A DNA stretch of 64,000 bases from Thermoanaerobaculia bacterium (GTDB lineage Bacteria; Acidobacteriota; Thermoanaerobaculia; Multivoradales; UBA5704). Of the stretch, positions 27,225 to 48,507 are shown one piece after another. Below the pieces are notes generated by a model. It saw only the letters and a program-made list of their open reading frames with translations. It did not search any database and was not told the origin of the DNA. The first letter of the stretch is position 1, and each line of letters opens with the position of its first letter. The position numbers and the translations under genes are program-made. The DNA lies in contig JBBRUC010000004.1 of the NCBI GenBank assembly GCA_038248205.1, positions 18 through 64,017 on the forward strand. The letters are read 5' to 3'.

Positions 27225-28001
27225 ATGAGAAGCTCGACTCCAATGCCCCCCGCGCTGGCTGTTGAGAACGTGGTCAAGGTCTACCCCGAGGGTACCCGGG
27301 CGCTCGACGGGGTGTCGTTCGAAGTGGCGGCGGGGGAGACGGTAGCCCTGGTGGGCGAGAGCGGCTCGGGCAAGACGACGCTGCTGCGCCTGTTCAACCG
27401 GCGGCTGGAACCGACCTCCGGCAAGGTCTTGGTGGCCGGCGAGGACATTGCGGGAGTAGACCCCGTGGCGCTCCGGCGGCGGCTCGGCTATGTGCCGCAG
27501 GACGGCGGCCTCTTGCCGCACTGGACGGTCGAGAAAAACATCGAGACGGTTCCCCGGTTGCTCGGGTGGGAAGCGCCCCGGCGGCGCGAGCGCGCCCGCG
27601 AGCTGCTCGAGCTGGTGGGCCTCTCCGATTCGGCCTATCCCGGTCGCTATCCGAGCGAGCTGTCCGGCGGCCAGCGCCAGAGGGTGGCGTTTGCCCGGGC
27701 GCTCGCCGCCGATCCGCCGATCGTGCTGCTCGACGAGCCGTTCGGCGCGCTCGATGCGCTCACCCGGCGCGAGTTGCACCTGCAATTCTCCGCATGGACC
27801 GCGGCGCTAGGCAAAGCCGCCGTTCTGGTCACCCATGATCTCGGCGAGGCGTTCCGGCTCGCGGTCCGGACGGGGGTGCTGCGCGCCGGGCGGTTGCTCC
27901 AGATCGGCACGCCCGAGGAGCTGGAGCGGCGGCCGGCCGACCCGTACGTCGAGGCGCTGCTCGATCTCGCGCTCTCGCGGCGGAGCGCGCATGAGTCATG
28001 A
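27225..28001 (+). CDS. ABC transporter ATP-binding protein (osmoprotectant/glycine-betaine type)
   Basis: Walker A GESGSGKTT, signature LSGGQRQRV, Walker B IVLLDEPF. ATGA overlap with the next gene. Confidence 0.9.
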   Translation: MRSSTPMPPALAVENVVKVYPEGTRALDGVSFEVAAGETVALVGESGSGKTTLLRLFNRRLEPTSGKVLVAGEDIAGVDPVALRRRLGYVPQDGGLLPHWTVEKNIETVPRLLGWEAPRRRERARELLELVGLSDSAYPGRYPSELSGGQRQRVAFARALAADPPIVLLDEPFGALDALTRRELHLQFSAWTAALGKAAVLVTHDLGEAFRLAVRTGVLRAGRLLQIGTPEELERRPADPYVEALLDLALSRRSAHES

Positions 28002-33230: not shown

Positions 33231-33260
33231 TTGACTGCGAACGCAGCTTTTGCGTAATAT
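33231..33260 (+). promoter_or_regulatory. sigma-70-like promoter TTGACT-N18-TAATAT
   Basis: TTGACT at 33231-33236 and TAATAT at 33255-33260, about 100 nt upstream of ATG 33359, in an AT-richer gap between divergent genes. Confidence 0.45.
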
Positions 33261-33358
33261 CCTGGGAGAATCACTGAACAGAGGAGCCGTAGCCACGCTC
33301 AAATCCGTTCGCGGGTGAGTTGGTTCGTGGGCCTGGCTCCGCACCGAGGAGCAATGCC

Positions 33359-35800
33359 ATGTTCAATCGGCGTTCGATTTTCGTAGTCCTTGCCTTCACT
33401 CTGGTTCTGTTGCCCTTCTGGGGCTGCCCCAAAAAGGGGCCGGTCCAAGACGAAGCGATGCAGGCCCACCGCACGGCGGAGACCTTCCCGGCGGCTGACG
33501 AAGATTATTTCCACGACATGGACGGCGGCGTGCCCTTGACCCCGGCCGAGGTCAAGGGGCGCAACAACTGGATCGTCTGGACCGGCGGCAACGATCGCTT
33601 CTGGGACACGATCTCGGGCGACAGCGTCGGCACGCTCGACCTGCTGAAGACGATCTCGTCCAAACCCGAGCTGGGCTACGGCCGCTCCAACCGTTGGCAC
33701 TATCTGGGTCTGGTCAACGAGCCCTGCTTCGAGGAGGCGAAGGGACCCGATCCCGAACATCACGGCCTCTGGCTCGATCAGCGGCGTCCCGACTGTCCTC
33801 CGGATCCGTTCGAGAACGAGGCCAAATACGCCGGAGTGAAGCTCGGGGCGCGCGGCGATACCGTGCCGGTGGGCTCGTACTACGGCGAGCCGACCGGGAT
33901 CGTCGGGCTCCGGCTCTTCCCCAATCCGGCCTTCGACGAGAAGGCGAAGGCGGCGTGGAAGCCCGAGGAGTACTACAGCGACTCAAAGTATTTCCTGCGC
34001 AAGGATCTGGTGAAGCCCTACCGGGTCGGCATGTCGTGCGGCTTCTGTCACGTCGGGCCGAACCCGGTCCATCCGCCGGCCGATCCGGAGAATCCGCAGT
34101 GGGCCGATCTCTCCTCGAACGTCGGCGCGCAGTATCTTTGGATCGACAACATCTTCAACTGGGACAAGACCGACCGGGATTCGAGCTTCGCCTACCAGCT
34201 CTTCCGCACCTCGCGGCCCGGCGCCCTCGATACCTCGCTGGTTTCCACCGACAACATCAACAACCCGCGCACCATGAACGCCGTCTACGGCGTGGCTTGG
34301 CGGCTGGCCAACGCCCAGCACCAGGGTAAGGAGACGCTGGCCGGCGGCGGCTTGAACAACCGGCAGTTCCACGAATTCCCGCAGACCACAGCGCTCAGCG
34401 CGTCGTTCCAGGCGCCGGACACCGTGTTCACCCCCCGGGTGCTGAAGGACGGTTCCGACTCGGTCGGCGCACTCGGCGCCTTGAACAGGGTGTTCTTGAA
34501 CATCGGCCTGTTCAGCGAGGAATGGCTGCTGCACTTCAAGCCCTTGATCGGCGGCAAGCCGATCACGCCGATCGAGATCGCGGTGATGCGGAAGAATTCG
34601 AGCTATTGGCTGGCGACCGAGCAGCAGACGCCGGATCTCGCCCTCTTCTTCTTGAAGAGCACGGCGCCGCACCTGCTGAAGGACGCGCCGGGAGGAGCGG
34701 CCTACCTGAGCACGGACGCCAAGGTGCTCGATCGCGGCAAGGTCGTCTTCGCCGAAACTTGCGCGCGCTGCCATTCGAGCAAGCTGCCGGAGGGGGCACC
34801 GGTCGCCGATGTCGGGATCTGCGCCGGCCCGGGGTACCTCGACTGCTGGAACCGCTACTGGGAGTGGACCCAAACCGAGGAGTTCAAGGCCGCGATGAGG
34901 AAGATCGTAATGGAGCCGGACTTCCTCGACCAGAACTTCCTGTCGACCGAGCTGCGGGTGCCGGTGACGCTGTTACAGACCAACGCCTGCAGCCCGCTGG
35001 CCACCAACGCCATCGAGGGGAACATCTGGGACAACTTCTCCTCGCGGTCCTACAAGGATCTGCCGTCGGTCGGCACGATCACCGTGCATCATCCATACAC
35101 CGGCGAGGAGCGCCAGTTCAAGATGCCGGCGGGCGGCCGCGGTTACACCCGTCCCGCTTCGCTGATCAGCCTCTGGTCTACCGCGCCCTTCCTGCTCAAC
35201 AACACGGTCGGGCCGTTCGACCCCGAGCCCTCGGTCGAGGGGCGCATGCGCTCGTTCAACGCCTCGATCGAACAGATGCTCTGGCCCGAGAAGCGCGACA
35301 AGGACAAGGTGTTCGGCGATAGGGTGTTCGGCGTCATCGACCGCACGGAGGGCAGCAGCTATCTGCGGGTTCCTTCCGGCTTCGTCCCCGAGCGGCTCAG
35401 GAAGCTGCGCGGCGCGGTCGGGGCGATCGCCCCGGCGGTGATCGGCAAGGACGGCATCGAGATCGGACCGATCCCGGACGGCACACCGGTCAACCTGCTC
35501 ACCAATCTCGACCTCTTGGGCGAGCCCCAGAATGCCGCGGAGCGGGTTAAGCGAGACGTAGCGATCCTAGATCTCCTGGTGCGCATCAAACACGATCTGA
35601 AGAGCCTGCCCAAGGGCGCCACCGACGAGCAGGCGCGAAAGGCCTTCGCCAACCTGGTCGAGCCGATGCTCAAGTTCAGCAAGTGTCCGGACTTCGAGGT
35701 CAACCGCGGCCACTATTTCGGTACCGGCAAGGTGCCGGGAGAACCGGCTCTGTCGGATGACGACAAGCGGGCGCTGATCGAGTTTTTGAAGACGCTCTAG
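33359..35800 (+). CDS. large dihaem c-type cytochrome-like lipoprotein
   Basis: Starts at ATG 33359. Lipobox-like LLPFWGC. Two CXXCH motifs (CGFCH and CARCH), the second in a G..VF...C..CH cytochrome c context. Confidence 0.75.
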   Translation: MFNRRSIFVVLAFTLVLLPFWGCPKKGPVQDEAMQAHRTAETFPAADEDYFHDMDGGVPLTPAEVKGRNNWIVWTGGNDRFWDTISGDSVGTLDLLKTISSKPELGYGRSNRWHYLGLVNEPCFEEAKGPDPEHHGLWLDQRRPDCPPDPFENEAKYAGVKLGARGDTVPVGSYYGEPTGIVGLRLFPNPAFDEKAKAAWKPEEYYSDSKYFLRKDLVKPYRVGMSCGFCHVGPNPVHPPADPENPQWADLSSNVGAQYLWIDNIFNWDKTDRDSSFAYQLFRTSRPGALDTSLVSTDNINNPRTMNAVYGVAWRLANAQHQGKETLAGGGLNNRQFHEFPQTTALSASFQAPDTVFTPRVLKDGSDSVGALGALNRVFLNIGLFSEEWLLHFKPLIGGKPITPIEIAVMRKNSSYWLATEQQTPDLALFFLKSTAPHLLKDAPGGAAYLSTDAKVLDRGKVVFAETCARCHSSKLPEGAPVADVGICAGPGYLDCWNRYWEWTQTEEFKAAMRKIVMEPDFLDQNFLSTELRVPVTLLQTNACSPLATNAIEGNIWDNFSSRSYKDLPSVGTITVHHPYTGEERQFKMPAGGRGYTRPASLISLWSTAPFLLNNTVGPFDPEPSVEGRMRSFNASIEQMLWPEKRDKDKVFGDRVFGVIDRTEGSSYLRVPSGFVPERLRKLRGAVGAIAPAVIGKDGIEIGPIPDGTPVNLLTNLDLLGEPQNAAERVKRDVAILDLLVRIKHDLKSLPKGATDEQARKAFANLVEPMLKFSKCPDFEVNRGHYFGTGKVPGEPALSDDDKRALIEFLKTL

Positions 35801-35835: not shown

Positions 35836-37704
35836 ATGGACGAGGAGTTCGACTACATCGTCGTGGGGTCGGGGGCCGGCGGCGGCCCCCTGGCCGCTAA
35901 TCTCGCTCTCGCCGGGCACCGCGTGTTGGTGCTGGAGGCCGGGGGCGGTCCGCCGAGCGAAGGCTCGCAAGAGGCTTACAACTACCAGGTTCCGGCCTTC
36001 CACCCGAACGCCTCGGAAGAGCCGGGAATGTCCTGGCAGTTCTTCGTCCGTCACTACGCCGACGAGGCACAGCAGAGGAAAGACACCAAGTACGAGCACG
36101 AAAAGAAGGGGATCTTTTATCCCCGCGCCGGCACACTCGGCGGCTGCACGGCGCACAACGCGATGATTCTCGTCTACCCGCACAACAGCGACTGGGACGG
36201 GATCGCCGAGCTGACCGGCGATTCCTCGTGGAGCGCCGAGTCGATGCGGCGTTACTACGAGCGGCTGGAGAACTGTCAATACCGACCGATCGTACGCTTT
36301 TTCCATCGCCACTTCGGTTGGAACCCGAGCCGCCACGGCTTCTCCGGCTGGCTGTGCACCGAGGAGGCGGACATCAAACTCTTGTTGGCCGACAAGATTC
36401 TGAGCTGGGTGGTCGAGGGGTCGGTGGTGAGAAGCCTGTTCAGTTCGGGCGCCGGTCTCGGGCAGGTGATCAAGCACGTCGTCTTCTGGCTGTGTACGTT
36501 CGGCGATCCGAACAGCTGGCGGTCGGTGACGGGGCGCTCGGAGGGGTTCCGGCAGGTCCCTCTGTCACGCGCCAAGGGCCGGCGGACGGGAAGCCGGGAG
36601 CGACTGCTGGATGTCCAAAAGCAGCATCCGGATCGACTGACCCTGCGCACCGGCTGCCTTGTCACCCGCGTGGTGTTCGACAGCGACAAGCGGGCGACCG
36701 GTGTCGAGTACCTGGAAGGGGAGCATCTCTACAGTGCCGACGCGATGCACCAACCCGAGGCGCAGGCGACAACGCGGCAGGTTGGTGCTCGGCGCGAGGT
36801 GATCCTGGCTGGCGGCGCCTTCAATACGCCGCAGCTCCTGCAGCTCTCCGGCGTCGGCCCGGCCGAGCTGCTCAAACAAAAGGAGATCCCGGCCGTCTTA
36901 GATCTCCCCGGGGTCGGCGCCAATCTCCAGGACCGCTACGAGATCTCGGTCGTCCTGCGGATGAAGAAGCGGTTCTCCTCGTTCGAGCGCGCGACCCTGA
37001 AGCCGCCGGAGCCGGGTGAGGAGCCCGATCCGCAATTGAAAGAGTGGCAGGAGGGCCGTGGCGTTTACACCACCAACGGCGCCGCGATGGCCTTCATCCG
37101 CCGCTCCTCTCCCGACAAAGTCGACCCCGATCTCTTCCTGTTCGGCCTGGTGACCCATTTCTACGGCTATTTCCTCGGATACTCGAAAGTCATCCAGGAG
37201 GCGCGCGACTACTTCTCCTGGACCGTGCTCAAGGGTCATACCAACAATACCGGCGGCTGTGTCGCGATCCGCTCAAAAAACCCGCTCGAAACGCCGGAGA
37301 TCAACTTCCACTATTTCGAGGAAGGGACCGATACCACCGGTGCCGATCTAGAAGCGGTGGTGGACGGGCTGGAATTCATCCTCGGCATCACCAAGACGTA
37401 TCAATGCCTGGTCGAGAAAGAAGTGCTGCCGGGCGAAACGCTCCACAGACGAGAAGACCTCAAACAATACGTGCGCGACCAGGCCTGGGGGCACCACGCC
37501 TCCTGCACCTGCAAGATCGGTGCGGACGACGATCCGATGGCGGTTCTCGACAGCAAATTCCGCGTCCGCGGTACGAAGGGCTTGCGGGTGGTCGACGCCT
37601 CGGTCTTCCCGCGCATCCCGGGCCTGTTCATCGTGTCGGCGGTCTACATGATCGCCGAGAAGGCGAGCGACGTGATCCTCGCCGACGCCTGCGCGGCCCC
37701 ATGA
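35836..37704 (+). CDS. GMC family FAD-dependent oxidoreductase
   Basis: FDYIVVGSGAGGGPLAANLALAGHRVLVLEAGG is the GMC N-terminal FAD fold. The C-terminus has HHASCTCKIG...VVDASVFP, the GMC signature with the active-site His region. Confidence 0.9.
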   Translation: MDEEFDYIVVGSGAGGGPLAANLALAGHRVLVLEAGGGPPSEGSQEAYNYQVPAFHPNASEEPGMSWQFFVRHYADEAQQRKDTKYEHEKKGIFYPRAGTLGGCTAHNAMILVYPHNSDWDGIAELTGDSSWSAESMRRYYERLENCQYRPIVRFFHRHFGWNPSRHGFSGWLCTEEADIKLLLADKILSWVVEGSVVRSLFSSGAGLGQVIKHVVFWLCTFGDPNSWRSVTGRSEGFRQVPLSRAKGRRTGSRERLLDVQKQHPDRLTLRTGCLVTRVVFDSDKRATGVEYLEGEHLYSADAMHQPEAQATTRQVGARREVILAGGAFNTPQLLQLSGVGPAELLKQKEIPAVLDLPGVGANLQDRYEISVVLRMKKRFSSFERATLKPPEPGEEPDPQLKEWQEGRGVYTTNGAAMAFIRRSSPDKVDPDLFLFGLVTHFYGYFLGYSKVIQEARDYFSWTVLKGHTNNTGGCVAIRSKNPLETPEINFHYFEEGTDTTGADLEAVVDGLEFILGITKTYQCLVEKEVLPGETLHRREDLKQYVRDQAWGHHASCTCKIGADDDPMAVLDSKFRVRGTKGLRVVDASVFPRIPGLFIVSAVYMIAEKASDVILADACAAP

Positions 37705-37746
37705 ATCTCTGAAGCTCAAAGGCTGCCGCGAAAAGGAGGAGTCATC

Positions 37747-40467
37747 GTGTCGAAGCCCGCACCGGAAGGTCCGCAAGGTCCGATCCACTTCGTCCAGGTC
37801 CTCTGGGACGAGCTGCTGCACCTGAAGCGCCGGGAACCCGAGGAAGCGACTCCAGAGCTCAAGGATCTCTTCCATCGCATCGGCGGTTGGACGCGCGAGA
37901 AGGGTCTGAGCGCCCTCTGCTTTTCCGGTGGCGGCATTCGCAGCGCGACCTTCAACCTGGGGGTCATCCAGGCCTTCGCGAAGATGGGGCTCCTCTCGCG
38001 CTTCGACTATCTTTCCAGCGTCTCGGGAGGCGGTTACATCGCCGGCTGGCTCAAGGCCTGGCTGTACCGTCGGCCGATCGAAGAGGTGCAGAAGGAGCTG
38101 GTCGATCCGGCGGAGCGCAAAGGGTTCGATCCGCTCTGCCCGGAGGCGCCGTCGCTCACCCATTTGCGCGAGTACAGCAACTATCTCACCCCTCGGGTCG
38201 GCCTGTTTTCCGCCGACACCTGGACCGCCGGGGCGCTGATCGTGCGGAACCTGCTGCTCAACTGGTTGGTCTTGCTCCCCGCCCTGGCGGCCGTGATCAG
38301 CATTCCGCAGGTCGGTCTCATCGTGGCCAGCGGAGCGACCGAGTCGGTGGAATGGGCGCAGTGGGGGCTGTGGGCCGCCGCGGCATCCGCCCTGTTTTCG
38401 GGCACCATGATTTACCACTTCCGCAACCAGCGTCGGGTGCCGCCGGACGAGCGCCGGATCGTCCTCTTCGGGGTCGCCCCGCTCTGGCTGTCGAGCCTCT
38501 TCCTCGCTCTCGTCGGCCTGTGGTCGCCGCCCGTCGAGCCGGAGCCCCTCTTTCTCTTTTGCCTTTTTTGGTGCGTGGGTATCCCGCTCCTCGGCTGGGT
38601 TCTCGGCCGTCTGACGGCCGGCCGCCAGGAGGTCAGGGAACCCGCCTCCTCCGACCTGCTCGGCCTGGTCATTTCAGGAGTCGTCGCCGCGATCATCTTG
38701 CAGGGCATTACTCTCTCCTGGCTGCCCTGGCTGCGGCAGAAGCCCGGCTTCTTCGTCGTCTTGGCAGTCCCCATCCTGCTCGGACTCTACCTTTTGGCGC
38801 GCTCTCTCTTCGTCGCCTTCGCGAGCCTCGGGGAGGCCGACCAACCGGCCCAGCCGGGTGAGACGCCGCACAGCGAAATCGGGTACGCCGACAGGGAGTG
38901 GTGGGCTCGCCTCTCGGGGTGGGTCCTGCTGTTGGCCATCGGGTGGATGGGGGTCAGCGCACTGGTCGTTTTCGGGGGGTTCCTTGATGTGAGCGGGGCC
39001 AGTCTCGCGAGCTTAGGCAGTACGGGGCTCGTTTCGACCCTGGTCACCATATTCATGGGCGCCAGCCGCAAGACGGGAGGGCGGCCGACGGAAACCGCGA
39101 AGGAGCCACCGTCGCCGGGGAAAGAGTTGGCGCTCCGGCTGGCCGCGCCGCTCACCGCGGCCTTCCTCGTCGTCCTGCTCGCGCGGTTCAACGTCTTCGC
39201 GGCTGGAAAGTTGCTTTGGGGCACCCTTGGCCTCAGGCTCGAAAACCTCGCCAAACTGTGGGAGCCCGCGCCCGAGGCCAGGCTCCAGGAAGCTGGGACG
39301 CTGCTCGAGGTCTTCTTGGTCTTCCTCCTCGTCCCCTTCGGCTTCGCCGCCCTCTCCTGGCTGCTCGGCTGGGTGGTCAACGTCAACCGCTTCTCGGCCC
39401 AGGGGCTCTATCGCAACCGCCTCACGCGGGCCTATCTCGGCGCTTCGAACCTCGAGCGCAAACCCGATCCGTTCACCGGTTTCGACCCCAAGGACAACCT
39501 GCCGCTCCACGAACTCGCCAAGGGTGCGACCCCCTCTCCGCTGCCGGTGATCAACGTCACCTTGAACCTCGTGGGCAGTGCCAAGTTGGCCTGGCAGCAG
39601 CGGAAGGCCGAATCGTTCTCCATGACGCCTCTGTACTGCGGCAACTTTCAGGAAGGGTATCGCCGCTCGAAAGATTACGGCGGTCCCGACGGCATCTCGC
39701 TGGGAACCGCGATGACCATCTCCGGTGCGGCGGCGAACCCGAGCGCCGGGTACCACTCCTCGCCGTTCATCGCCTTCTTGCTCACGCTGTTCAACGTCCG
39801 TCTCGGCAGCTGGCTCGGCAATCCGAACGAATACGGAGCGAAGGTGTTCGGCCGCTCCGGTCCGCGGCACGCCTGGAAGCCGCTGTTCGCCGACCTGCTG
39901 GGGATGACCGACCGCAAGCACGCCTACGTCAGCCTTTCGGACGGCGGTCATTTCGACAACCTGGGAGTCTATGAGATGGTCTTGCGCCGCTGCCGTTTCA
40001 TCGTGGCGAGCGATGCGGGGCAGGACCAGGACTACAACTTCGAAGAACTCGGTTCTTTGGTGCGCAAGGTGCGGACCGACTTCGGTATTCCGATCGATTT
40101 CTCGGACGAGATCCGCATCCTGTCGCGCAACGCGGACGGCTCGGGGCTCTTCTACGCCCTGGGCAAGATCCACTACGAATGCGTCGATGGCCCGACGGCT
40201 GAGCCCGGCTGGCTGCTCTACGTCAAGCCGACCTTACGCGCCGAAGGGGCGCCGCTGCCTCCGGATGTCCTCGGCTATTCGCGCTCTTCTCCGACCTTTC
40301 CGAATGAACCGACCTCGGACCAGTGGTTTACCGAGGCCCAGTTCGAGAGTTACCGCGCGCTCGGTTATCACCTGGTACACCAGCTTGGCGGTGCCGGGCC
40401 ATTCCCGGACCTGCCGTCCCTTTTCGCGGCGATCGCGCCGTCGGCGCCGCAGCCAACCAGCGGCTAA
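37747..40467 (+). CDS. patatin/cPLA2-like phospholipase with a large multi-TM insertion
   Basis: Oxyanion motif CFSGGGIRS (residues about 59-66), nucleophile elbow SVSGGG (Ser about 93) and catalytic Asp motif LSDGGHFDNLG (Asp about 732, nt 39940). About ten hydrophobic helices lie between the Ser and the Asp. GTG start. Confidence 0.85.
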   Translation: MSKPAPEGPQGPIHFVQVLWDELLHLKRREPEEATPELKDLFHRIGGWTREKGLSALCFSGGGIRSATFNLGVIQAFAKMGLLSRFDYLSSVSGGGYIAGWLKAWLYRRPIEEVQKELVDPAERKGFDPLCPEAPSLTHLREYSNYLTPRVGLFSADTWTAGALIVRNLLLNWLVLLPALAAVISIPQVGLIVASGATESVEWAQWGLWAAAASALFSGTMIYHFRNQRRVPPDERRIVLFGVAPLWLSSLFLALVGLWSPPVEPEPLFLFCLFWCVGIPLLGWVLGRLTAGRQEVREPASSDLLGLVISGVVAAIILQGITLSWLPWLRQKPGFFVVLAVPILLGLYLLARSLFVAFASLGEADQPAQPGETPHSEIGYADREWWARLSGWVLLLAIGWMGVSALVVFGGFLDVSGASLASLGSTGLVSTLVTIFMGASRKTGGRPTETAKEPPSPGKELALRLAAPLTAAFLVVLLARFNVFAAGKLLWGTLGLRLENLAKLWEPAPEARLQEAGTLLEVFLVFLLVPFGFAALSWLLGWVVNVNRFSAQGLYRNRLTRAYLGASNLERKPDPFTGFDPKDNLPLHELAKGATPSPLPVINVTLNLVGSAKLAWQQRKAESFSMTPLYCGNFQEGYRRSKDYGGPDGISLGTAMTISGAAANPSAGYHSSPFIAFLLTLFNVRLGSWLGNPNEYGAKVFGRSGPRHAWKPLFADLLGMTDRKHAYVSLSDGGHFDNLGVYEMVLRRCRFIVASDAGQDQDYNFEELGSLVRKVRTDFGIPIDFSDEIRILSRNADGSGLFYALGKIHYECVDGPTAEPGWLLYVKPTLRAEGAPLPPDVLGYSRSSPTFPNEPTSDQWFTEAQFESYRALGYHLVHQLGGAGPFPDLPSLFAAIAPSAPQPTSG

Positions 40468-40479
40468 AGGAGCGAAGCC

Positions 40480-41550
40480 ATGGTCACCTTTTACGGCGAG
40501 GAAGGGCTCACCGCAGAGGATCTCGCGTTCCGTGGGTCCCGCTTTTCGGAGGTACACGAAGCGGCCTTCTCCAACCCCTATCAGAAGATTTGGGGGGCCG
40601 CCGGAGTGCCGGCTTTGCCGGTCCACAAGGTGGCTCTCGGCGGGGTCTTGCGCGGCATCCTTCCCGGGGGGCGGCCGTATACCTTCCGCCAGGCGGCCGT
40701 GCGCACGGTCTCGACCCGGAACGATCTGCGCTGGGGACCCGACGACAAAGGCTACCGGCGCCTGCTGCACACCAATGGGATCATCCTGTTCGGCGAGTGG
40801 GAGATCACCGAAGCCACCCCCTATTCCGGCTACTTTCGCGAGGGGAGCCGGGCGCTCCTCGCGGCGCGCTATTCCACCTGCTGCACCGAAACCCGGCGCG
40901 GCTCGGGCCGCTCGCTCTCGCTGGTGGCGCGCCTCTATCCCACCGCCGACCCGGAGCATGCCGCGCCGCTGCCCACCGCCGGTTTGATCACACAACAGGA
41001 CATCGGCGGCGATTTCTCCACCCACATCAACGACGCCGAGCTGAGAAACGCGCCCGACGTGACTGCGCTGCGCCGCGGCGGTGGATTGCCGATCATCCTG
41101 ATCACCGGCCTGCTGTTCGGCAAGGTGAACAAAGAAAGCTCCGTGCGCCAACTCTACGAAATCGCTGAGCTGGGCAAGAGCCCCGCCGAGCCCACCCTCT
41201 CACCGCTCTACATCCGCCTCTTGGTCGCCGATGAACAGCCGCGGATCCCCGGCGAGCGGCTCGATTTCCGCGACGAGGTGATGGCGCAGATCTACGACCC
41301 GGGCGATCCGGCGCCGAAGCGCAAGTTGGTTTTCCATATCGAAGTGACCGATCAGGCGAAGTTCGGCGGCTTCACCGACGCCTACCGTAGGGTGACTTTC
41401 GAGAACTGGCGGCGGATCGGCAAGATCACCTTCGACTGCGCGGTGGCCTCCTACAACGGGGACTTCGTCATCCACTTCCACCACCCCCGCTGGCGGACGG
41501 ACGCCAACGACCCGAAGTCCGAGCTGCCGGTGAAGGGGGAGAAGGGCTGA
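40480..41550 (+). CDS. hypothetical protein, possibly a catalase-related haem fold (weak)
   Basis: 356-aa ORF starting 12 nt after the patatin stop. RRLLHTNGIILFGEWEIT resembles the catalase distal RxxHxxGxxxxGxF motif. I could not identify a clear proximal R...Y motif. Confidence 0.65.
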   Translation: MVTFYGEEGLTAEDLAFRGSRFSEVHEAAFSNPYQKIWGAAGVPALPVHKVALGGVLRGILPGGRPYTFRQAAVRTVSTRNDLRWGPDDKGYRRLLHTNGIILFGEWEITEATPYSGYFREGSRALLAARYSTCCTETRRGSGRSLSLVARLYPTADPEHAAPLPTAGLITQQDIGGDFSTHINDAELRNAPDVTALRRGGGLPIILITGLLFGKVNKESSVRQLYEIAELGKSPAEPTLSPLYIRLLVADEQPRIPGERLDFRDEVMAQIYDPGDPAPKRKLVFHIEVTDQAKFGGFTDAYRRVTFENWRRIGKITFDCAVASYNGDFVIHFHHPRWRTDANDPKSELPVKGEKG

Positions 41551-41626: not shown

Positions 41627-44356
41627 TCAGAGCACTTTCACTTTGGGCAACTCGCCCGTGTTCGTCTCCCAGCTCTCCCACATCGGCAGCTCGCGAATGC
41701 GCGGCCCGCCCGCGGCGACGATCGCGTTGGCCAGTGCGGGGGCGACCGGGGGGACCGGGGGCTCGCCGACGCCCGTCGGCTGCGTTCGAGGATCGTCCGG
41801 CGGCAGCTTTTCGAGATCGTGCAGGATGATGTGGATGTTGATCTTCGGCGTCTGGTAGAGGCGCAGGACCGGGTAGTCGTCGAAGTTGTGCTGCTCGACC
41901 GCCCCATCCTTGACCGTGATCTCCCCGTGCAAGGCGAGGCTCAGGCCATAGACGATGCCCCCCTCCATCTGCGCGACGATCCGATCCGGGTTGACGGCGA
42001 CGCCGCAGTCGATCGCGGCGTGGACCTCGTGGATGGTCAGCTCGTTCATGTCGTTGACCGAGACGTCGATCACCATGGCGACGTAGCTCAAGAAGCTCCG
42101 GTGGGCGGCGATGCCCAGGCCGCGGCCGGTGTCCTTGTACCTCTTGACCTTCTCATCCCAGCCCGCCTCCTGCGCCGCCCTTTCCACCACGGCACGGAGC
42201 CGTCGGGTGTCGGGCGGGTAACTTGACATCACCTTGACCGGTTCTCCACGAGGCACCACGGGAAAACCGTTGTTGTCGAAGTGCTCGACGCCCTCGGCTT
42301 TGAGGTCGAGAACCTTTCCTTCGCCGATCAAATCGAGCAGATAGTCCTTGGAATCGCGTCCGGCGGCGATCGCCAATTCGTCCGCGAAGGAGCCGATGGC
42401 GAAGGCGTGGTAGATGTTGCTGACCGAGCGCATCCAGCCGCAACGGATGTGGGAATCGGCCGGGCAGTTCTCGAGGCGCAGGTGGGGCACGTCGAAAGGC
42501 ATGTCTTCGAGACCCTGCCCACGTTCGATGGCCGAGAGATAGGGGTACTCCCCGCCATTGTGAGTGAGGGCACGCGCTTGCGTGAAGAGCTCCCGGACGG
42601 CTTCGGGCAGACGGGGGTCCGGGGGCGGAAAAAGTGTCGCGAAGAACGAGGGAAAGGCGCTCCGCTGCAGCCAGGCTGTCGCATGCCCATCAAGGTCGAG
42701 AGCCGCCTTTAGATATTGCAGGCTGCACGCTTGGAAATAGCTGAACTGGATGTCGTCCTCGCGAGTCCACTGGACCCGGATCGGTACGCCGGGGAACTTC
42801 TTGGCGAGGAAGGCCGCTTCGATCGCGTAGTCGGGTTTCGACTTCCGCCCGAAGCCGCCACCGAGCAGCGTCACATGGACCTTGACCTTTTCTTCGATCT
42901 CCTTTTTGAGGTCTCTTCTAAACTTGAGCTCCGCGGCCTCATCCCAACCGAGCGCTCTTCGGAGCCCTTCTCTGAAGCTACGGTTGTCGACAAACTCGTA
43001 GGCCGGAAGATCGAAAACGTCGGGTTCTCCCCAAGCCAGCCATTCCAACGGATTGGGGTGCAGCATCGCCAGGCCTACGTACTGCTGCAAGATCTGGGGA
43101 CCCTGGGAGGGAGCCCAGATCTCCCAGCGCCCGCCTTTATAGAGAGCGATGGCCACGGGGGGTTCCATCGGCGCTTGCGCGAGGTGAGGAACGTAGTAGC
43201 TCGCCTCCACGACGCGGTTCGGCAACGCGAAGGCCGCGTCGACCTCGTCTTCGCTCCCCCGGTGTCGCACGGTCTTGCCCGGTTGGGAGGTCGCTTGTTC
43301 GAGCTTCTCGCGAAAGGTATTCGAGTCATAGGCGACGTTCGGTCCGAGGTCCCACTCGACCTTGAGCTTCCGGCGCCCTTGCAATGCTGCCCAGCTATTC
43401 TTCGCCACCACGGCGACCCCTGCATGCGGCAGAAATCCAGCGCCCACCCCTCCCGCCGGCACGGTCATCGGCAGGCGGACGAGGACAACGTCCACGACGC
43501 CAGGCACCTTGCGCGCCGCGGTGTCGTCGAAACTCTTCACCTCGCCGTTGGCCACTGGACAGCGCTCGATCATCGCGGTCAGCATGCCGGGTAGATCGAC
43601 GTCGGCGCCGTAGACCGCCTTGCCGCGGACCATGTCGGGGGCATCGACGAACGGCATCTTCTTGCCGATGAAGTTCCACTCCTTGGGCTGTTTGAGCGCG
43701 GCGAGGGATTCTTGGTAGGTCGGCAACGGCACCTTTTTGGCCAGGAGCAGCAAATCGACGAAGTCGAGGGTGCGACCGCTGACTTTGTTTCGCACCTTGT
43801 GCTCTTTCGTTTCGTAGTCGCCGACATCGCCGCCGAGCTTTTTCGCCGCGGCGCGGATCAGCACGAGGCGGATGCCGGCACCGAAGAGCCGCATAGGCAG
43901 GAAGTAGGCGGCCATGCTGCGGGAGCTGTCGGTGAACTGGGCGCCCTCCTCCGGAATCAGGAACGGCGGCGTCGCGTCGAGGGTCGTGACGGGGGTCGAA
44001 CCTGGGACCGCGAAAGGGTTCTGTACCGCGAACTTGGAGGCGTCGGCGTCGGCCTGCTCGACCCGGACTCGACTCCAATCGGCCCCCAGCTCGTCGGCCA
44101 GCACGGCCGCCAGGCTCGAACGGATGCCCTGGCCCATCTCCGAGCGGTGGGACACGATGACGACCGTTCCGTCGAGCTGAATCGAGACGAAATTGTTGAG
44201 GGGGAATCGGTGACGGTAGACCTTGCCGACCGTCTTGGCGACCGCCAGAAAGAGCGACCCCGCCGAAGAGACGTTGGCACCGAACACCAAAGCTCCGGCG
44301 CCGACACCGGTGTAACGGAGGAAATCCCGGCGGCTGACACGGACGATGCCGCTCAT
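41627..44356 (-). CDS. molybdopterin-dependent hydroxylase large subunit (IorB/aldehyde oxidoreductase-like), Tat-exported
   Basis: Twin-arginine signal [19 protein letters not shown]. Reads GGGFGRK, and the size and layout fit the xanthine dehydrogenase/aldehyde oxidase Moco-binding family. ATGA overlap with the 2Fe-2S subunit gene. Confidence 0.9.
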
Positions 44357-44829
44357 GACGCACCCTCCTCGGCGAGTTCTTGAATCGCTTTCCGGATCCG
44401 AGGATAGGTGCCGCAGCGACAGATGTTGCCGCTCATCGCGTTGTCGATGTCGTCGTCAGTGACTTTGGTGTTCGCTTTCTTGTGCTCGGCCAGGAGCGCC
44501 GCGGCGGACATGATTTGCCCCGGCTGGCAATAACCGCACTGCGGTACGCCGAGTTCCACCCACGCCTTCTGGCACGGGTGGCTGCCGTCGAGTGACAGGC
44601 CCTCGATCGTGGTGATCTTGGAGAGGCAGGCCACTCCTACGTCGACGGCGCAGGAGCGCACGGCCCGGCCGTCGAGATGGACGGTGCAGGCGCCGCATTG
44701 CGCGATGCCGCAACCGAATTTGGTGCCCTTGAGCCCCAGGACGTCGCGCAGAGCCCATAGCAAGGGCATGTCGCCGTCCACGTCGACGGAGTACCGCTTG
44801 CCATTGACGTGGAGCTGAATGATGGACAT
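44353..44829 (-). CDS. (2Fe-2S)-binding small subunit of the molybdo-hydroxylase
   Basis: [12 protein letters not shown] and CQPGQIMS...[11 protein letters not shown] are the two [2Fe-2S] cluster motifs of the IorA/CoxS type. Confidence 0.9.
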
Positions 44830-44864
44830 CGAGAACCTCCTTCTCTGATCGCTTCGAGGCTAGA

Positions 44865-46520
44865 TCACAATTTGCGTCGAATCTCCAGCCGCGCTCCGTA
44901 GACGTTTTTCTGCCCTTCCCGCCAGCCATGCATGGCATCGAGGCGCAGGATCCAGGCGTTGTTGAGCGGACGTTGATAGCGGGCTCCAAAGGCGTACTGG
45001 GTCCCCAACGGGTTGTCGCTCATCCGTTCGACCACCGACCCTTCGAAGACGATCTGGCGGTGGAGGTCGAACAGATACTCCACGCCGAAAGCCCCGCCGT
45101 AGGAGTCCTTCGCGCTAGCGTCGAGCGTCGGGTAACCGGTCAGGCCGTCGGACTCGAAGTTGATGCCGGTGTTTTTGAGTACGCCGCCGGAATCGGCTGC
45201 CCGCGCGAGCGGCTGCGGCGAATCAAAGCCGGCGAAGAAGTTGAAGTAGGGAACGAGATTGACCGCACCCGGAACGCCATTCAACGACCGCCGCGGGATC
45301 AGCGAATTTTCGACCAGAACCAGCACCCCGTCGGCCGTCTTGGTCGTTGCGTCCTGGCCGAAGTTACCGATCAGCCGGACGCTGTTGTTGATCCGTCCGC
45401 GGTACCGCTTGGTAAACGCGGCGGAGACGTTGTGGTAGCTGAATTCCTTGTCGTCAGCGTCGACGTAGCCGTAGCCGAGCTCGAAATATCCTCTCCGGAC
45501 GTCGGCGAATCCCGCGAGGCCGAACACTTTGGCGTGGTCGTTGCTACCGGGAACGGCGGCGGTCGTCACCTGGTTGAAACCGGCGAACAAGGTGAGGTCG
45601 AAGTTGCTGATATCGAGCGACGGGCTGTTCTTCGCCGTGATGCTCAGGGCCGCGCCGTCGAAGGCGTCATCGAGCCAGATGCCGTTCTGGGTGAACAGTG
45701 GAACCCGACCGAAGGCGATCGGCAGATCGATCTTGTTGGTCTTGCCGGTCCAACCTTGCAGCATGGCGCCGAGGTCGCCTTCAAAGTAGAGGGTGTCGAG
45801 ATTGAAGTCGAGTTGCTCGACGGACTCGTTGTCCTTCGCCCCTCCGCGGAACTGGTAGCGGGTAAACGAGCCGTTTTTATCGAGCGGGCGCGCGAAGGCG
45901 TGAATCCGCTCGGTGGCGGTGAGGGCGAAGTCCATGTCGAGGTTGAGACGGCTGGCGACCACCGATTGGTCGGTCTTGCCGTTTGCGCCAGGCTTGCCGT
46001 TGTCGTACGCGGCGGCGGCGACCCGCAGGTCGCCATACGCCATCAAGTGGGCGTTGATCGGGTTTTTCGCCCCGAACCAGATGGGGCGGGGCTCGTAGGC
46101 TCCCCGGTCGTAGAGGCGACGTCCCAACTCGACGGGCGGATTGGCCGTGGGGTTCATGTGCTTCTTGTCGTAAATGTCCAGCTGGGCCTGGGCGTCGTAG
46201 GGTCCCTCGTAGAGGGCGTCGGGAATGAACCAGCCCCCGGCCGGCACGTCGAGATCGTTGAGAGGACCGAGGATTTTGGCCTCTGGAGACATCTCGTGGT
46301 CCCCTCTCCTATCGACGCCGGGTTGGGGGGCGCCGGCCGGAGAATCGCCCGCGGTGTCGGCTTGGGGGGCGTCGGATTGAAGTGCATCGGCCGAAGGGGC
46401 CGGAGCGGCGTCTTCGGCGAAGGCTCGCGGGACGCCGAGGACGAGCAGGAGCAGTCCGACGATAAATCCGGAGAGAAGTCTGGTGAGGAGGGAGTTGGCA
46501 GTCCACGCTTTTCCGTTCAT
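44865..46520 (-). CDS. putative outer-membrane beta-barrel (porin-like) protein
   Basis: Signal/anchor LLSGFIVGLLLLVLGVPRAFA, a low-complexity linker, then a long alternating strand-like sequence (e.g. YAFGARYQRPLNNAWILRLDAMHGW). No family recognised. Confidence 0.6.
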   Translation of the reverse strand: MNGKAWTANSLLTRLLSGFIVGLLLLVLGVPRAFAEDAAPAPSADALQSDAPQADTAGDSPAGAPQPGVDRRGDHEMSPEAKILGPLNDLDVPAGGWFIPDALYEGPYDAQAQLDIYDKKHMNPTANPPVELGRRLYDRGAYEPRPIWFGAKNPINAHLMAYGDLRVAAAAYDNGKPGANGKTDQSVVASRLNLDMDFALTATERIHAFARPLDKNGSFTRYQFRGGAKDNESVEQLDFNLDTLYFEGDLGAMLQGWTGKTNKIDLPIAFGRVPLFTQNGIWLDDAFDGAALSITAKNSPSLDISNFDLTLFAGFNQVTTAAVPGSNDHAKVFGLAGFADVRRGYFELGYGYVDADDKEFSYHNVSAAFTKRYRGRINNSVRLIGNFGQDATTKTADGVLVLVENSLIPRRSLNGVPGAVNLVPYFNFFAGFDSPQPLARAADSGGVLKNTGINFESDGLTGYPTLDASAKDSYGGAFGVEYLFDLHRQIVFEGSVVERMSDNPLGTQYAFGARYQRPLNNAWILRLDAMHGWREGQKNVYGARLEIRRKL

Positions 46521-46532
46521 GTTCGCCCTCTC

Positions 46533-48284
46533 TCAGCGGACCACGAATTCGACGGCGTAGGCATGTGTGTCGGTGACCCATTCGTTCTCGGCCCGCTTCA
46601 TGTCCCTCGTGGCGTCGACGAACGCCATGAAGTACATGGGCTCGGTTCGGCCCCGCAGGCGCACGGCAAGACGATAGGTGCCGACTTTCGCTAACAGCCT
46701 TCCCGGAACTGTGTATTTGGCGACCCGGGTGGCGAGAGGCGGGATGCTGCGCTTTTCCATCCGCGCGAACGGGGGATGATTGAGTATCGAGGTCGGCGCG
46801 CCCCCGGGCCGGATGAACGGCAGCTGGTCGAAGTCCAGGTTGATCGGCAGATACATCTCCCGATCGGTCCCCTTGAGGTTGGTGGTGATGAACTTGGCCT
46901 GCATGCTGAAGAGCTGGTGGTCGAGGGCGATCTTGCCCGCCTGGACGTCCGCGGACTGGAAATCGGCGACGTCGCCGTTGCTGTCGACGTAACCCGCTCC
47001 CCAGACCCTACTCCCGTCGGGATCGATCAGCGAGACGTCGAGCCACAATTCGGGTTGCGCCCCGAGAGAGCCGGAGGGGAGGTTGTGCCCCCGGTTGAGA
47101 TTGGTCAGCTTGTACCGGAACGAGAAGGGCTTGCCGGCTTGGGGACTGCCGTCGAAGAACGGGCCATCGAGGCGGGAGCCGTTCTCCAGGAGCTTGATGC
47201 GCATCTGCTTTCGCTCTTCCCACCGGTCGAAATTGGCCTCCACCGTCTGCCAGGCCGCCTTGCGGTCGTCGAGCTTCCGCCACTCCGGCGGGAAGGTGTA
47301 GGAACGGGGCGCTGCGGCGACCTTGGCCTCGAATTCGTCGCTCCCCCACTTGTCCCGGTAGTCGAATGTCAGCCACTGCTCGGGGGTGTAATCGGACTCC
47401 ACCGGACTGAAAGGGAAGAGGCCGGGATGGCTGATCGGGTAGCCCGGGCCGACGAAAGTGTGATCGGTGAGATCTCGGTTCTCGTTGACGAACCGGCCGT
47501 TGACGATCGCGGCCCAGCCCTTGTCGTAACCGACGGGCAGCCCCGGATTTTTGCTCATGTGGCACTGCTGGCAGGTGATGCCGTCCTTGGCGGCGGGAGA
47601 GGCCCGGTACTCTTCCCAGACGGTTTCGAGCTTGATGCCGGGATGGACTTGCACCTGGTGACAGGTGGCACAGAACTCCGACTTCACGATCAGGTCGGAT
47701 TGGATGGCCTGTTGGTGAATCTTGAGCCAGCCGGGCTTGTCGGTTTCGACGGGATTCACCTGGATCTGGAACTCCCGCGTATTTTCGATCGCCCGCAGGA
47801 CGCCGCGGCTGTCGAACGGGCCGAACACGGGCTCGTTGATGTTGCCCGGCGTGATCCGCCGCGCGGCGTTGGTCTTGCCGTACGCCTCGCCGACCCGGTG
47901 GCAGGTGACGCAGGTGATGCCTTCGCGCGCCGCGCTGCTGCGGTTCCACCAGGCGATGTCGCGCCGCTCGGCCAGGGCCGTGCCGACGCTCGCGTGGCAG
48001 CGGACGCAGAACGAGTTGATGGTGCCTTGCGCCAGATCGTTGATTTTCTGCTCGAACTTATTGAACATCGGCGATAAGTTCGCGTAGGCGTGGGACGAGT
48101 TGCTCCACTGCTTGAACTGGTTGGGGTGACACTCGCCGCAGACCCGGGCGGACGGATATTGCTCATCGGCCACTGCCTTGGCGTGGGGATTGTCCTCGGG
48201 TAGGGGGTTGGGGAGCACCTGCCCTTTCGCAGCCCCCAGTCCCGCCAACAGGAGGATACTGAATGCTAAGCCGGCTTTGTGCAT
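46533..48284 (-). CDS. pentahaem c-type cytochrome
   Basis: Five CXXCH motifs: CGECH, CVRCH, CVTCH, CATCH, CQQCH. Signal peptide MHKAGLAFSILLLAGLGAAKG from ATG 48284. Confidence 0.85.
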   Translation of the reverse strand: MHKAGLAFSILLLAGLGAAKGQVLPNPLPEDNPHAKAVADEQYPSARVCGECHPNQFKQWSNSSHAYANLSPMFNKFEQKINDLAQGTINSFCVRCHASVGTALAERRDIAWWNRSSAAREGITCVTCHRVGEAYGKTNAARRITPGNINEPVFGPFDSRGVLRAIENTREFQIQVNPVETDKPGWLKIHQQAIQSDLIVKSEFCATCHQVQVHPGIKLETVWEEYRASPAAKDGITCQQCHMSKNPGLPVGYDKGWAAIVNGRFVNENRDLTDHTFVGPGYPISHPGLFPFSPVESDYTPEQWLTFDYRDKWGSDEFEAKVAAAPRSYTFPPEWRKLDDRKAAWQTVEANFDRWEERKQMRIKLLENGSRLDGPFFDGSPQAGKPFSFRYKLTNLNRGHNLPSGSLGAQPELWLDVSLIDPDGSRVWGAGYVDSNGDVADFQSADVQAGKIALDHQLFSMQAKFITTNLKGTDREMYLPINLDFDQLPFIRPGGAPTSILNHPPFARMEKRSIPPLATRVAKYTVPGRLLAKVGTYRLAVRLRGRTEPMYFMAFVDATRDMKRAENEWVTDTHAYAVEFVVR

Positions 48285-48507
48285 TGGCCAATTCTCCTCG
48301 CTCCAGGTGGCGGATCGAACCAAGTCATATTCTCTTGACAGGTCAGGGCGCTTCATCGCGCCATAGCGCTGAGACTAATTAGGGCTTATTAGTGAGTGTA
48401 CCATAGTATGGCGCAGGGCGCCGCGTGAAATTTCGGCAATCTCCGGCCTTCCGGTCCATGAGACCGGGTGAGATTTTCGTTTCCGGTCGCGGACCAAGGG
48501 GGCCGGC

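Follow-up and report, generated by a model that had tools for sequence, protein, structure and literature searches.

The lipase gene and its catalytic motifs

The window analysed here, by which we mean the whole stretch of 64,000 nucleotides from the genome assembly of a Thermoanaerobaculia bacterium (Acidobacteriota; GCA_038248205.1, contig JBBRUC010000004.1, positions 18 to 64,017 of the forward strand), carries a gene for a predicted membrane-embedded hydrolase of the patatin/cPLA2 type. This protein of 906 amino acids (aa), which we call the lipase, was recognised from its open reading frame (ORF) and translation, a Pfam match, its homologues and an AlphaFold model, and it is encoded by the third gene of an apparent four-gene operon. 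The features of the lipase gene, in positions of the window, are as follows.

37733 to 37739, forward strand: Shine-Dalgarno sequence AAGGAGG, read from the sequence, with the GTG start codon 7 nt downstream
37747 to 40467, forward strand: the lipase gene (P0001), 906 aa
37894 to 38211, forward strand: N-terminal catalytic part, residues 50-155, consisting of strand, GGGIR, helix, strand, Ser93 and helices (secondary structure of the model, conservation)
37927 to 37941, forward strand: block I, the oxyanion-hole motif GGGIR, residues 61-65 (motif, conservation in 122 representatives)
38017 to 38031, forward strand: block II, the nucleophile elbow S-V-S93-G-G (motif, conservation)
38212 to 39384, forward strand: inserted membrane block, residues 156-546, with ten predicted transmembrane helices (hydropathy, helices of the model, positive-inside count, conservation)
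39385 to 40386, forward strand: C-terminal catalytic part, residues 547-880, which holds most of the beta-sheet (strands of the model, conservation)
39718 to 39741, forward strand: block III-like motif I-S-G-A-A-A-N-P, residues 658-665, conserved, with low model confidence (conservation, position in the sequence)
39940 to 39948, forward strand: block IV, the catalytic Asp732 in D-G-G, followed by an invariant H-F (motif, conservation)

The two catalytic residues of the lipase, Ser93 in SVSGG and Asp732 in SDGGHF, lie 639 residues apart. A sequence-only reading of the same DNA had proposed a patatin dyad split by about 640 residues, and the spacing observed by us agrees with this, as do the approximate positions that it gave for Ser93 and Asp732 and the N-terminal placement of GGGIR in the 906-aa translation. 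Its estimate of roughly ten transmembrane helices between residues 165 and 545 was also essentially right, since the model contains ten long helices between residues 156 and 541; a hydropathy scan gave 9-10 hydrophobic segments within residues 160-546. The motifs were found to be conserved in 122 diverse representatives of the family, in which S60-G-G-G-x-R65-S, S93-G-G-G and D732-G-G-H-F are invariant (G734 is present in 121 of the 122). The residues around the nucleophile follow the invariant pattern S90-[T/S]-V-S93-G-G-G, and in the block III-like motif S659-G-A-A is invariant and P665 is present in 119 of these proteins.

Patatin-like proteins are defined by four sequence blocks, of which block I is a Gly-rich oxyanion loop that contains Arg or Lys, block II is GxSxG or GxSxS, situated 10-20 residues past block I, block III is ASxxxP in bacteria or AAP in eukaryotes, and block IV is D-G/S-G/A and holds the catalytic Asp (PMC5127104). 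Compared with this definition, the lipase possesses blocks I and IV, but block II is not present in its literal form: all family members have [S/T]-V-S-G-G around the nucleophile where GxSxG would be canonical, the first Gly never occurs, and the motif comes 26 residues after R65. Ser93 is invariant and is seated in a strand-turn-helix in the AlphaFold model. The sequence I-S-G-A-A-x-x-P at 658-665 resembles block III with another spacing, and was assigned by its position in the sequence. The single contiguous soluble catalytic domain of about 200-250 residues was likewise not found in the lipase. The Pfam Patatin profile nonetheless recognised the protein with 33.6 bits against a cut-off of 27.7, aligning residues 57-143 with profile positions 1-72 of 191.

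The gene is single-copy in the source genome and its base composition matches that of the surrounding DNA, with a G+C content of 0.62-0.67. Over the helix-coding part (window positions 38000-39500) we observed an AT skew of about -0.3 at a G+C content of 0.65-0.67, which is likely to be a coding effect of T-rich hydrophobic codons and no mark of foreign DNA.

A large and widespread family with the same layout

The sequence-only reading had proposed a phylogenetic survey of the split architecture, and this survey found the same layout in many phyla. A HMMER search of 1.84 billion cluster representatives yielded 16,984 clusters at 50% identity with E≤0.001, of which 6,964 had E≤1e-30, and a word-indexed search returned at least 6,937 full-length homologues of similar length that align end to end with the lipase. 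The preservation of one layout in so many proteins goes far beyond chance. On scanning one genome per species, at least 592 species were observed to carry a homologue, among them members of the Acidobacteriota, Gammaproteobacteria (Steroidobacter, Tahibacter), Verrucomicrobiota, Nitrospirota, Bacteroidota, Gemmatimonadota, Alphaproteobacteria and others. The lipase belongs to a very large bacterial family from soil, freshwater and rhizosphere habitats to which the databases give a generic name, many of its homologues being called 'patatin-like phospholipase family protein' at NCBI. Our literature searches found no description of this lipase architecture, and the word "transmembrane" is absent from a 2026 review of patatin-domain lipases.

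Across the family the spacing between Ser and Asp has a median of 655 residues, with an interquartile range of 642-699 and a maximum of 1,085 (n=264); with its 639 residues, the window lipase is thus typical of its family. The longest members (1,400-1,580 aa) contain neither an extra Pfam domain nor a sensor domain. Within the phylum the distribution is patchy (25 of 301 sampled genomes and 22 of 185 genera), and a complete genome from the genus of the source yielded no lipase match. Plasmids accounted for 43 matches, nearly all of them on large replicons of rhizobia, Methylobacterium, Cupriavidus and similar bacteria. In one homologue of 1,127 aa (P0025) the membrane block contains three or four tandem copies of a unit of about two helices (...VVIPLVGWLIA...TGS...), which indicates that the block can expand by internal duplication. 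Another protein, P0151, was the only candidate for a natural family member lacking the membrane block; it was rejected, because it is a fragment without its N-terminus and its motif match is spurious.

These data also decide whether the gene could be an artefact, either a misassembly or gene-calling error by which a piece of a patatin became attached to some unrelated membrane protein, or a chance occurrence of DGG. In its favour one could cite the Pfam alignment, which covers only the first 72 of the 191 profile positions, and the C-terminal half, which is without a sequence match to known lipases. However, thousands of full-length homologues from isolates as well as metagenomes have their parts in the same order, D732-G-G-H-F is invariant, and the model is confident across all junctions. 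The conserved order of parts and the invariant motifs of the homologues already refute such an origin, to which we assign practically no likelihood.

Predicted structure, topology and the membrane block

An AlphaFold2 model of the lipase was built on 64 sequences, and has a mean predicted local distance difference test score (pLDDT) of 87 and a predicted template modelling score (pTM) of 0.86. Its N-terminal elements are a strand (55-60), a helix (63-79), a second strand (88-92) and a second helix (95-108), and its C-terminal strands comprise residues 599-607, 622-626, 688-691, 727-731, 751-756, 803-808 and 821-826. The strand 727-731 directly precedes Asp732 and the strand 751-756 comes after it. 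The modelled succession of strand, GGGIR loop, helix, strand, Ser93 and helix is the standard opening of the patatin/cPLA2 fold. According to the model the N-terminal part has two strands only, the remaining strands all being C-terminal, and since a two-strand piece cannot be a domain alone and the pTM is high, the N- and C-terminal soluble parts are predicted to complete one alpha/beta fold. The earlier proposal of an active site assembled across a polytopic membrane module holds to the extent that the motifs are split by the membrane block and the soluble parts are modelled as one body.

The positive-inside count gave 19.9 Lys and Arg residues on the side of the N- and C-terminus and 4.7 on the other side (mean over the 64 sequences), and no N-terminal signal peptide was found in the lipase. 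This bias together with the lack of a signal peptide points to a cytoplasmic catalytic domain and to a topology of ten spans with the N-terminus inside. In the 64-sequence alignment the mean majority fraction was 0.50 in the membrane block versus 0.74 in both catalytic parts, and within the block the transmembrane helices TM1, TM6 and TM7 stand out as conserved. Invariant polar residues were observed at the cytoplasmic ends of TM1 (D157, R167, N168) and TM7 (E384, R388), and also just after TM10 (N547, S550, Y555, R558), so that the invariant polar residues cluster at the junction of the membrane block with the catalytic part.

It is conceivable that the lipase is a transport-coupled enzyme, in which the ten-helix block is a lipid or lysolipid transporter or flippase that feeds the cytoplasmic hydrolase from the outer leaflet or the periplasm. 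The logic would be comparable to that of the LplT-Aas pair, which retrieves lysophospholipids. The weak matches of the membrane block in a Foldseek search of PDB (URAT1, NarK, Spns2, FLVCR1 and ferroportin among them) are nearly all transporters, many of the major facilitator superfamily and some of them lipid carriers; the block is itself conserved, some of its charged residues being invariant, and a recurrent partner of the lipase, described below, is periplasmic, which would be sensible if the substrate arises outside the cytoplasm. On the other hand, these matches all have a probability of ≤0.30 and a TM-score (template modelling score) of ≤0.23, which amounts to no confident fold match. 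An internal 5+5 repeat was sought among the ten helices and rejected (hhalign probability <1%). The invariant polar residues, moreover, are located at cytoplasmic helix ends and not mid-membrane as a translocation path would need. We consider transport coupling of this kind unlikely.

Structural relation to cPLA2 and classical patatins

When the lipase model was searched against PDB with Foldseek, the top matches were two human group IV cytosolic phospholipases A2, cPLA2-alpha (1CJY) and cPLA2-delta (5IZ5), with E values from 4e-4 to 5e-3 and a probability of 1.0. The match to 1CJY (E=4e-4) extends over about 400 aligned columns, which is close to the size of both soluble parts of the lipase together (about 440 residues). 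ExoU ranked 13th in the same search, with a probability of 0.09. At the level of sequence, a weak phmmer match against PDB aligned the Ser93 motif with GISGS of cPLA2-delta, the phmmer and hmmsearch matches to cPLA2 had E=0.13-0.39, and the full-length family profile matched VipD, ExoU and cPLA2 weakly (E=0.04-0.7); the alignments of both kinds were limited to the N-terminal part. The likeness to cPLA2 is structural only, because the sequence comparisons of the C-terminal half were silent. The profile searches by which the two parts could have been exposed as something other than halves of one patatin fold were likewise silent and not refuting, the C-terminal half having no patatin or cPLA2 match.

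The statement in the sequence-only reading that the dyad normally falls within 150-200 residues is true of patatins. In cPLA2-alpha, by contrast, which is the structurally closest enzyme, about 320 residues including a cap separate the two positions. Its nucleophile we take to be Ser228, and the position of Asp549 was checked against 1CJY. A large insert between Ser and Asp thus has a precedent in cPLA2-alpha, and the new part is a membrane domain as the insert. Group IV cPLA2 enzymes share with the window lipase the Ser-Asp dyad, the GGGxR oxyanion loop, a large distance between Ser and Asp with a big insert between them, and action at the membrane surface; for the window lipase the assembled dyad and the site of action are predictions. 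They differ in being soluble and eukaryotic, with a C2 domain and calcium-dependent recruitment and with an insert that forms a soluble cap and lid, whereas the insert of the window lipase is a ten-helix membrane domain that would hold it permanently in the membrane. The Pfam scan found no C2 domain and no other extra domain in the window lipase, and no match to PLA2_B (PF01735) at E≤0.1.

With the classical patatins (PF01734; ExoU, VipD) the window lipase has in common the Pfam Patatin match above cut-off, blocks I and IV and the placement of the nucleophile Ser. It differs from them in that the Pfam profile aligns over its first third only, block II reads [S/T]xSxG instead of GxSxG and the block III-like motif is spaced differently. 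The dyad of ExoU consists of Ser142 and Asp344, a spacing of about 200 (PMC5127104) as against about 640 in the window lipase. Classical patatin-like proteins are soluble or secreted toxins, whereas the window lipase is predicted to be an inner-membrane protein and comes from non-pathogenic soil bacteria. In view of the missing PLA2_B and C2 matches and the deviations in the blocks, we have filed the lipase as a distinct variant within the patatin/cPLA2 superfamily.

A patatin domain and a membrane domain are also joined in one polypeptide in PlpD, a type Vd protein of Pseudomonas aeruginosa, in which an intact patatin domain is followed by a POTRA domain and a 16-strand outer-membrane beta-barrel (PMC11116518). 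In the window lipase, by contrast, the membrane domain is alpha-helical, of the inner membrane and placed inside the catalytic domain, and no Pfam match to POTRA or Omp85 was obtained.

An apparent four-gene operon

The lipase gene is flanked by co-directional genes, which together with a promoter-like site make up the following arrangement.

33231 to 33260, forward strand: sigma-70-like promoter match upstream of gene 1, the only one in the region (weak, 0.9 matches being expected by chance)
33320 to 35800, forward strand: gene 1, a secreted dihaem protein of 826 aa, or 813 aa if read from the ATG at 33359 (translation, CxxCH motifs)
35836 to 37704, forward strand: gene 2, a GMC-family oxidoreductase of 622 aa, dependent on flavin adenine dinucleotide (FAD), without export signal (Pfam GMC_oxred_N and GMC_oxred_C)
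37747 to 40467, forward strand: gene 3, the lipase
40480 to 41550, forward strand: gene 4, a conserved protein of 356 aa without a Pfam or PDB match, starting 12 nt past the lipase stop codon (ORF)

The gaps between these four genes measure 35, 42 and 12 nt, a Shine-Dalgarno sequence precedes every gene, and a sequence scan found no convincing terminator inside the operon. The single promoter-like site is compatible with one transcription unit, and says no more than that. The helices of the lipase are the only membrane-spanning element of the operon.

Convergent to the operon lies a cluster on the reverse strand (41627-48356) that encodes a molybdopterin hydroxylase with a twin-arginine (Tat) signal, a 2Fe-2S subunit, a 551-aa protein without Pfam domain and a multihaem cytochrome (C554-like). 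This molybdoenzyme cluster and a glycine-betaine transporter gene (27998-29620) were examined as possible partners and rejected, as neither recurs in the 82 lipase loci described below. The pentahaem cytochrome of the cluster is syntenic only in the close relative L089, where it is 87% identical.

Recurrent linkage of the lipase to a GMC enzyme and a dihaem protein

We collected 82 lipase loci with 10-kb flanks and clustered all of their ORFs. Most of these loci proved to be stand-alone, with no conserved partner either in the clustered flanks or among 138 immediate neighbours. Only two neighbour families recur across phyla, namely the 826-aa protein (8-9 of the 82 loci) and the GMC oxidoreductase (5-6 of the 82), and a secreted dihaem protein of either type was found within 10 kb in 12 loci. 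The trio is present in the order of the window in a Terriglobia metagenome-assembled genome (MAG), in Rhizobium oryziradicis and in Chromobacterium sp. LK11, the lipase of the last being confirmed by BLASTP. The lipase gene lies upstream of the dihaem/GMC pair in a gammaproteobacterium, in divergent orientation in locus L088, and 3-4 kb from the pair in Tahibacter and in a Steroidobacteraceae MAG. The 356-aa protein recurs with the dihaem/GMC module in three loci (L089, L092 and L108).

In one case two of the partners are fused. Protein P0007 (1,543 aa) joins a GMC enzyme and a lipase head to tail. Three independent assemblies encode exactly this GMC::lipase sequence, and in each of them its gene is situated downstream of a dihaem gene. 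The fusion locus (L089) holds the parts of the window in another order, including the 356-aa protein, which is 82% identical. The GMC partners in the linked loci were found to be without export signals, so that the GMC enzyme shares the cytoplasm with the catalytic domain of the lipase, as fits the natural fusion.

Looking from the dihaem protein outwards, its gene is paired with a GMC gene in 46 of 55 metagenome loci with sufficient flank, and the lipase occurs in 6 of 80 metagenome loci of the dihaem protein (4 of 36 among those with long flanks). Among 300 genomes of the phylum, six contain both the lipase and a dihaem gene, where about one would be expected (Fisher p=1.6e-4), and a close orthologue of the dihaem protein occurs in six genomes, five of which have the lipase too (Fisher p=1.2e-5); related genomes are not independent, and both p values therefore overstate the case. 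Taken with the gene order, the counts show a genuine, though optional, association of the lipase with the dihaem-GMC pair.

Several loci deserve mention in their own right. A Nitrospira MAG (L087:11553-13520) has a GMC gene whose product carries a twin-arginine signal and a lipobox (MMDPKTRRDFLRLAAVAGLSLPLDGC), with no lipase nearby, and the GMC-dihaem pair may work in different compartments in different lineages. In locus L002 (9729-12569, 3908-6987) an animal-haem-peroxidase (COX-like) gene lies directly downstream of the lipase and a DUF4331-TPR pair upstream, and in a Steroidobacteraceae MAG (L013:14139-16946) a DUF4331-TPR pair is placed between the lipase and the GMC gene. On plasmid pMRAD01 of Methylobacterium radiotolerans JCM 2831 (L172, 214224-217031) a lipase homologue, WP_012329697.1, annotated as 'hypothetical protein', is divergent from a full-length NF040606 member (573 bits), and a P450 and a transcriptional regulator are encoded nearby. 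As this strain is cultured and genetically accessible, its locus is a good experimental entry point.

The partner proteins

The product of gene 1 (826 aa) bears an export signal together with two CxxCH haem-c motifs, both of them invariant: C240/C243/H244 and C481/C484/H485. Its family comprises at least 7,124 homologues, has no Pfam domain and retains 66-86% identity across phyla. An AlphaFold model (pLDDT 74) gave no match in PDB at E<1, and the family profile matched only a generic haem-binding segment there. The protein shares two CxxCH motifs and an export signal with the NF040606 'di-heme cytochrome C peroxidase' family and with RoxA, RoxB and RoxC. Against NF040606 itself the window protein reached 31.7 bits over its last 30 residues only, as compared with a cut-off of 150, whereas divergent paralogues of the dihaem family matched NF040606 at E=9e-10 and 5e-12, and RoxB/RoxC weakly. 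The NF040606 protein of M. radiotolerans has weak similarity to the rubber oxygenases RoxA-C, and its direct comparison with the dihaem family gave a probability of 28% over 28 columns. The sequence comparisons thus hint at a relation of the dihaem partner to NF040606 and the rubber oxygenases, which we treat as a weak lead and not as membership.

For the GMC enzyme the closest solved relatives are choline dehydrogenase/oxidase and fatty-acid photodecarboxylase, and its NCBIfam scores were far under every equivalog cut-off. The 356-aa protein has at least 2,622 homologues, annotated as 'hypothetical', no Pfam domain and no match in PDB even with a 29-sequence family profile. A catalase-like reading of this protein, suggested by a distal-His look-alike (RRLLHxNG...W-E-I-T), was rejected, as it found no support in Pfam, NCBIfam or PDB.

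The question of a role in defence

Patatin-like lipases are common as defence effectors, an example being CapV in the cyclic-oligonucleotide-based antiphage signalling system (CBASS; PMC12480259). The sequence-only reading had framed the lipase in these terms, and had stated that no sensor or cyclase gene adjoins it. The latter observation is correct, although the recurrent GMC and dihaem partners were overlooked; the immune-effector framing did not hold up. No PADLOC family matched the lipase at E≤0.1 and no copy was present in 50,697 phage records. The 138 immediate neighbours include no dominant Pfam family and nothing related to defence, and no cyclase or sensor family recurs in the 82 clustered loci.

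CapV and the window lipase are members of the patatin superfamily with a Ser-Asp dyad, which in the lipase is predicted to assemble, and in both the presumed target is the cell's own membrane phospholipids. CapV, however, is small and soluble, adjoins a cyclase and is activated by a cyclic nucleotide, whereas the window lipase is predicted to be a permanent membrane protein, with no cyclase or sensor nearby. A Candidatus Binatia MAG (L003/L007) offers a setting like a defence or mobile island, in which the lipase gene lies amid genes for a KAP-family NTPase, an HTH-M78 peptidase regulator, PIN/PhdYeFM and PemK toxin-antitoxin proteins and a transposase; it is a single case, unlike the other lipase loci.

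As an effector of anti-phage defence or abortive infection, the lipase would reside in the cell's own membrane and, once triggered, wreck it by phospholipase action, in the manner of CapV. The frequency of patatin-like lipases among defence effectors, the Binatia locus and the patchy distribution within the phylum could be adduced for this reading. All the same, the partners that do recur are redox enzymes and not defence families, the long members of the family are without a sensor domain, and a permanently inserted lipase without a visible trigger would be hard to keep silent. Together with the negative PADLOC and phage searches, this leaves a defence function very improbable.

Proposed function of the lipase

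Based on these observations, we regard it as fairly probable that the lipase is an inner-membrane acyl hydrolase with a Ser-Asp site on the cytoplasmic face, a helix block that delivers lipid and, through its operon, a coupling to oxidation. As modelled, its two halves would join one alpha/beta sheet in which Ser93 meets Asp732 at the cytoplasmic membrane surface. The invariant polar residues of the junction, described above for TM1, TM7 and TM10, may form a substrate portal, through which a lipid held among the helices would present its ester bond to the dyad. The reaction would be a de-acylation of the cell's own inner-membrane lipid, of the phospholipase A or lysophospholipase type, and would serve lipid turnover or remodelling and not cell killing. 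That the enzyme acts on lipids of its own bilayer had already been put forward in the sequence-only reading, and it remains the most reasonable view, the best structural matches being Ser-Asp lipases. In the subset of the family with redox partners, hydrolysis is probably coupled to oxidative lipid chemistry, and the lipase might supply the substrate that is then oxidised, or else remove lipid that has been oxidised; of the whole scheme, the coupling is the most speculative step.

Several findings weigh against this proposal. The claim of one fold rests on a predicted structure and on motif conservation, block II of the family departs from GxSxG, and the pLDDT falls below 50 in two conserved loops near the presumed active site (613-619 and 663-671). 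The TM-scores to cPLA2 are modest, 0.29-0.35 when normalised to the target, with a root-mean-square deviation of 8 Å. Even at E≤10, a profile of lipase residues 545-906 matched nothing in PDB or Pfam, and its comparison with residues 547-727 of cPLA2-alpha (a fragment identical to 1CJY over that range), considered as sequence proof of a shared fold, had to be rejected at a probability of 0.4%. With regard to coupling, the redox linkage is seen in only about 10-15% of lipase loci, the co-occurrence could partly reflect shared ecology, namely large soil genomes, and the dihaem partner is periplasmic whereas the GMC enzyme and the catalytic domain are cytoplasmic.

The same Ser-Asp dyad might instead serve an acyltransferase or transacylase that shifts acyl chains from one membrane lipid to another; transfer of this kind can be carried out by some enzymes of the patatin-domain and cPLA2 groups. 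Such an enzyme would need catalytic machinery identical to that for hydrolysis, the active site is predicted to lie at the membrane surface, where the helices could restrict the access of water, and a widespread, mostly stand-alone family would fit remodelling of a housekeeping type. A core remodelling function is, however, at odds with the patchy distribution (25 of 301 genomes, with no match in the congeneric genome), and no acyl-carrier or acyl-CoA gene recurs beside the lipase among the 138 neighbours. We judge acyl transfer to be improbable.

A bolder extension of the hydrolase proposal, which we advance tentatively and consider rather doubtful, is that the lipase, the GMC enzyme, the dihaem protein (Rox/CCP-like) and the 356-aa protein constitute an undescribed oxidative lipid pathway at the inner membrane, with the lipase placed upstream of oxygenases as cPLA2 is in animals. 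In one variant, an acyl or alcohol substrate would be released for the redox enzymes and give products of the oxylipin type; in the other, lipids damaged by the redox enzymes or by oxidative stress would be excised, as a form of membrane repair. In that case only the ten-helix block would bridge the membrane and connect the haem protein in the periplasm with the enzymes of the cytoplasm.

Significance

Enzymes of the patatin/cPLA2 type have been studied as soluble proteins, and their recruitment to the membrane is a control step in toxins, immunity and eicosanoid signalling. In the family described here the same catalytic fold appears to be built around a ten-helix domain, so that the enzyme would sit permanently in its substrate. 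This raises the questions of how self-digestion is avoided, how lipids are selected and whether the helical block acts as a substrate gate. What the window itself contributes is the recurrent, sometimes fused, partnership of the lipase with redox enzymes. Its linkage to a GMC flavoenzyme and a secreted dihaem protein, including the fusion, provides a concrete and testable handle on function. The dihaem and GMC partner families are likewise large and uncharacterised, and the linkage points to a scarcely explored bacterial chemistry of lipid oxidation or lipid repair.

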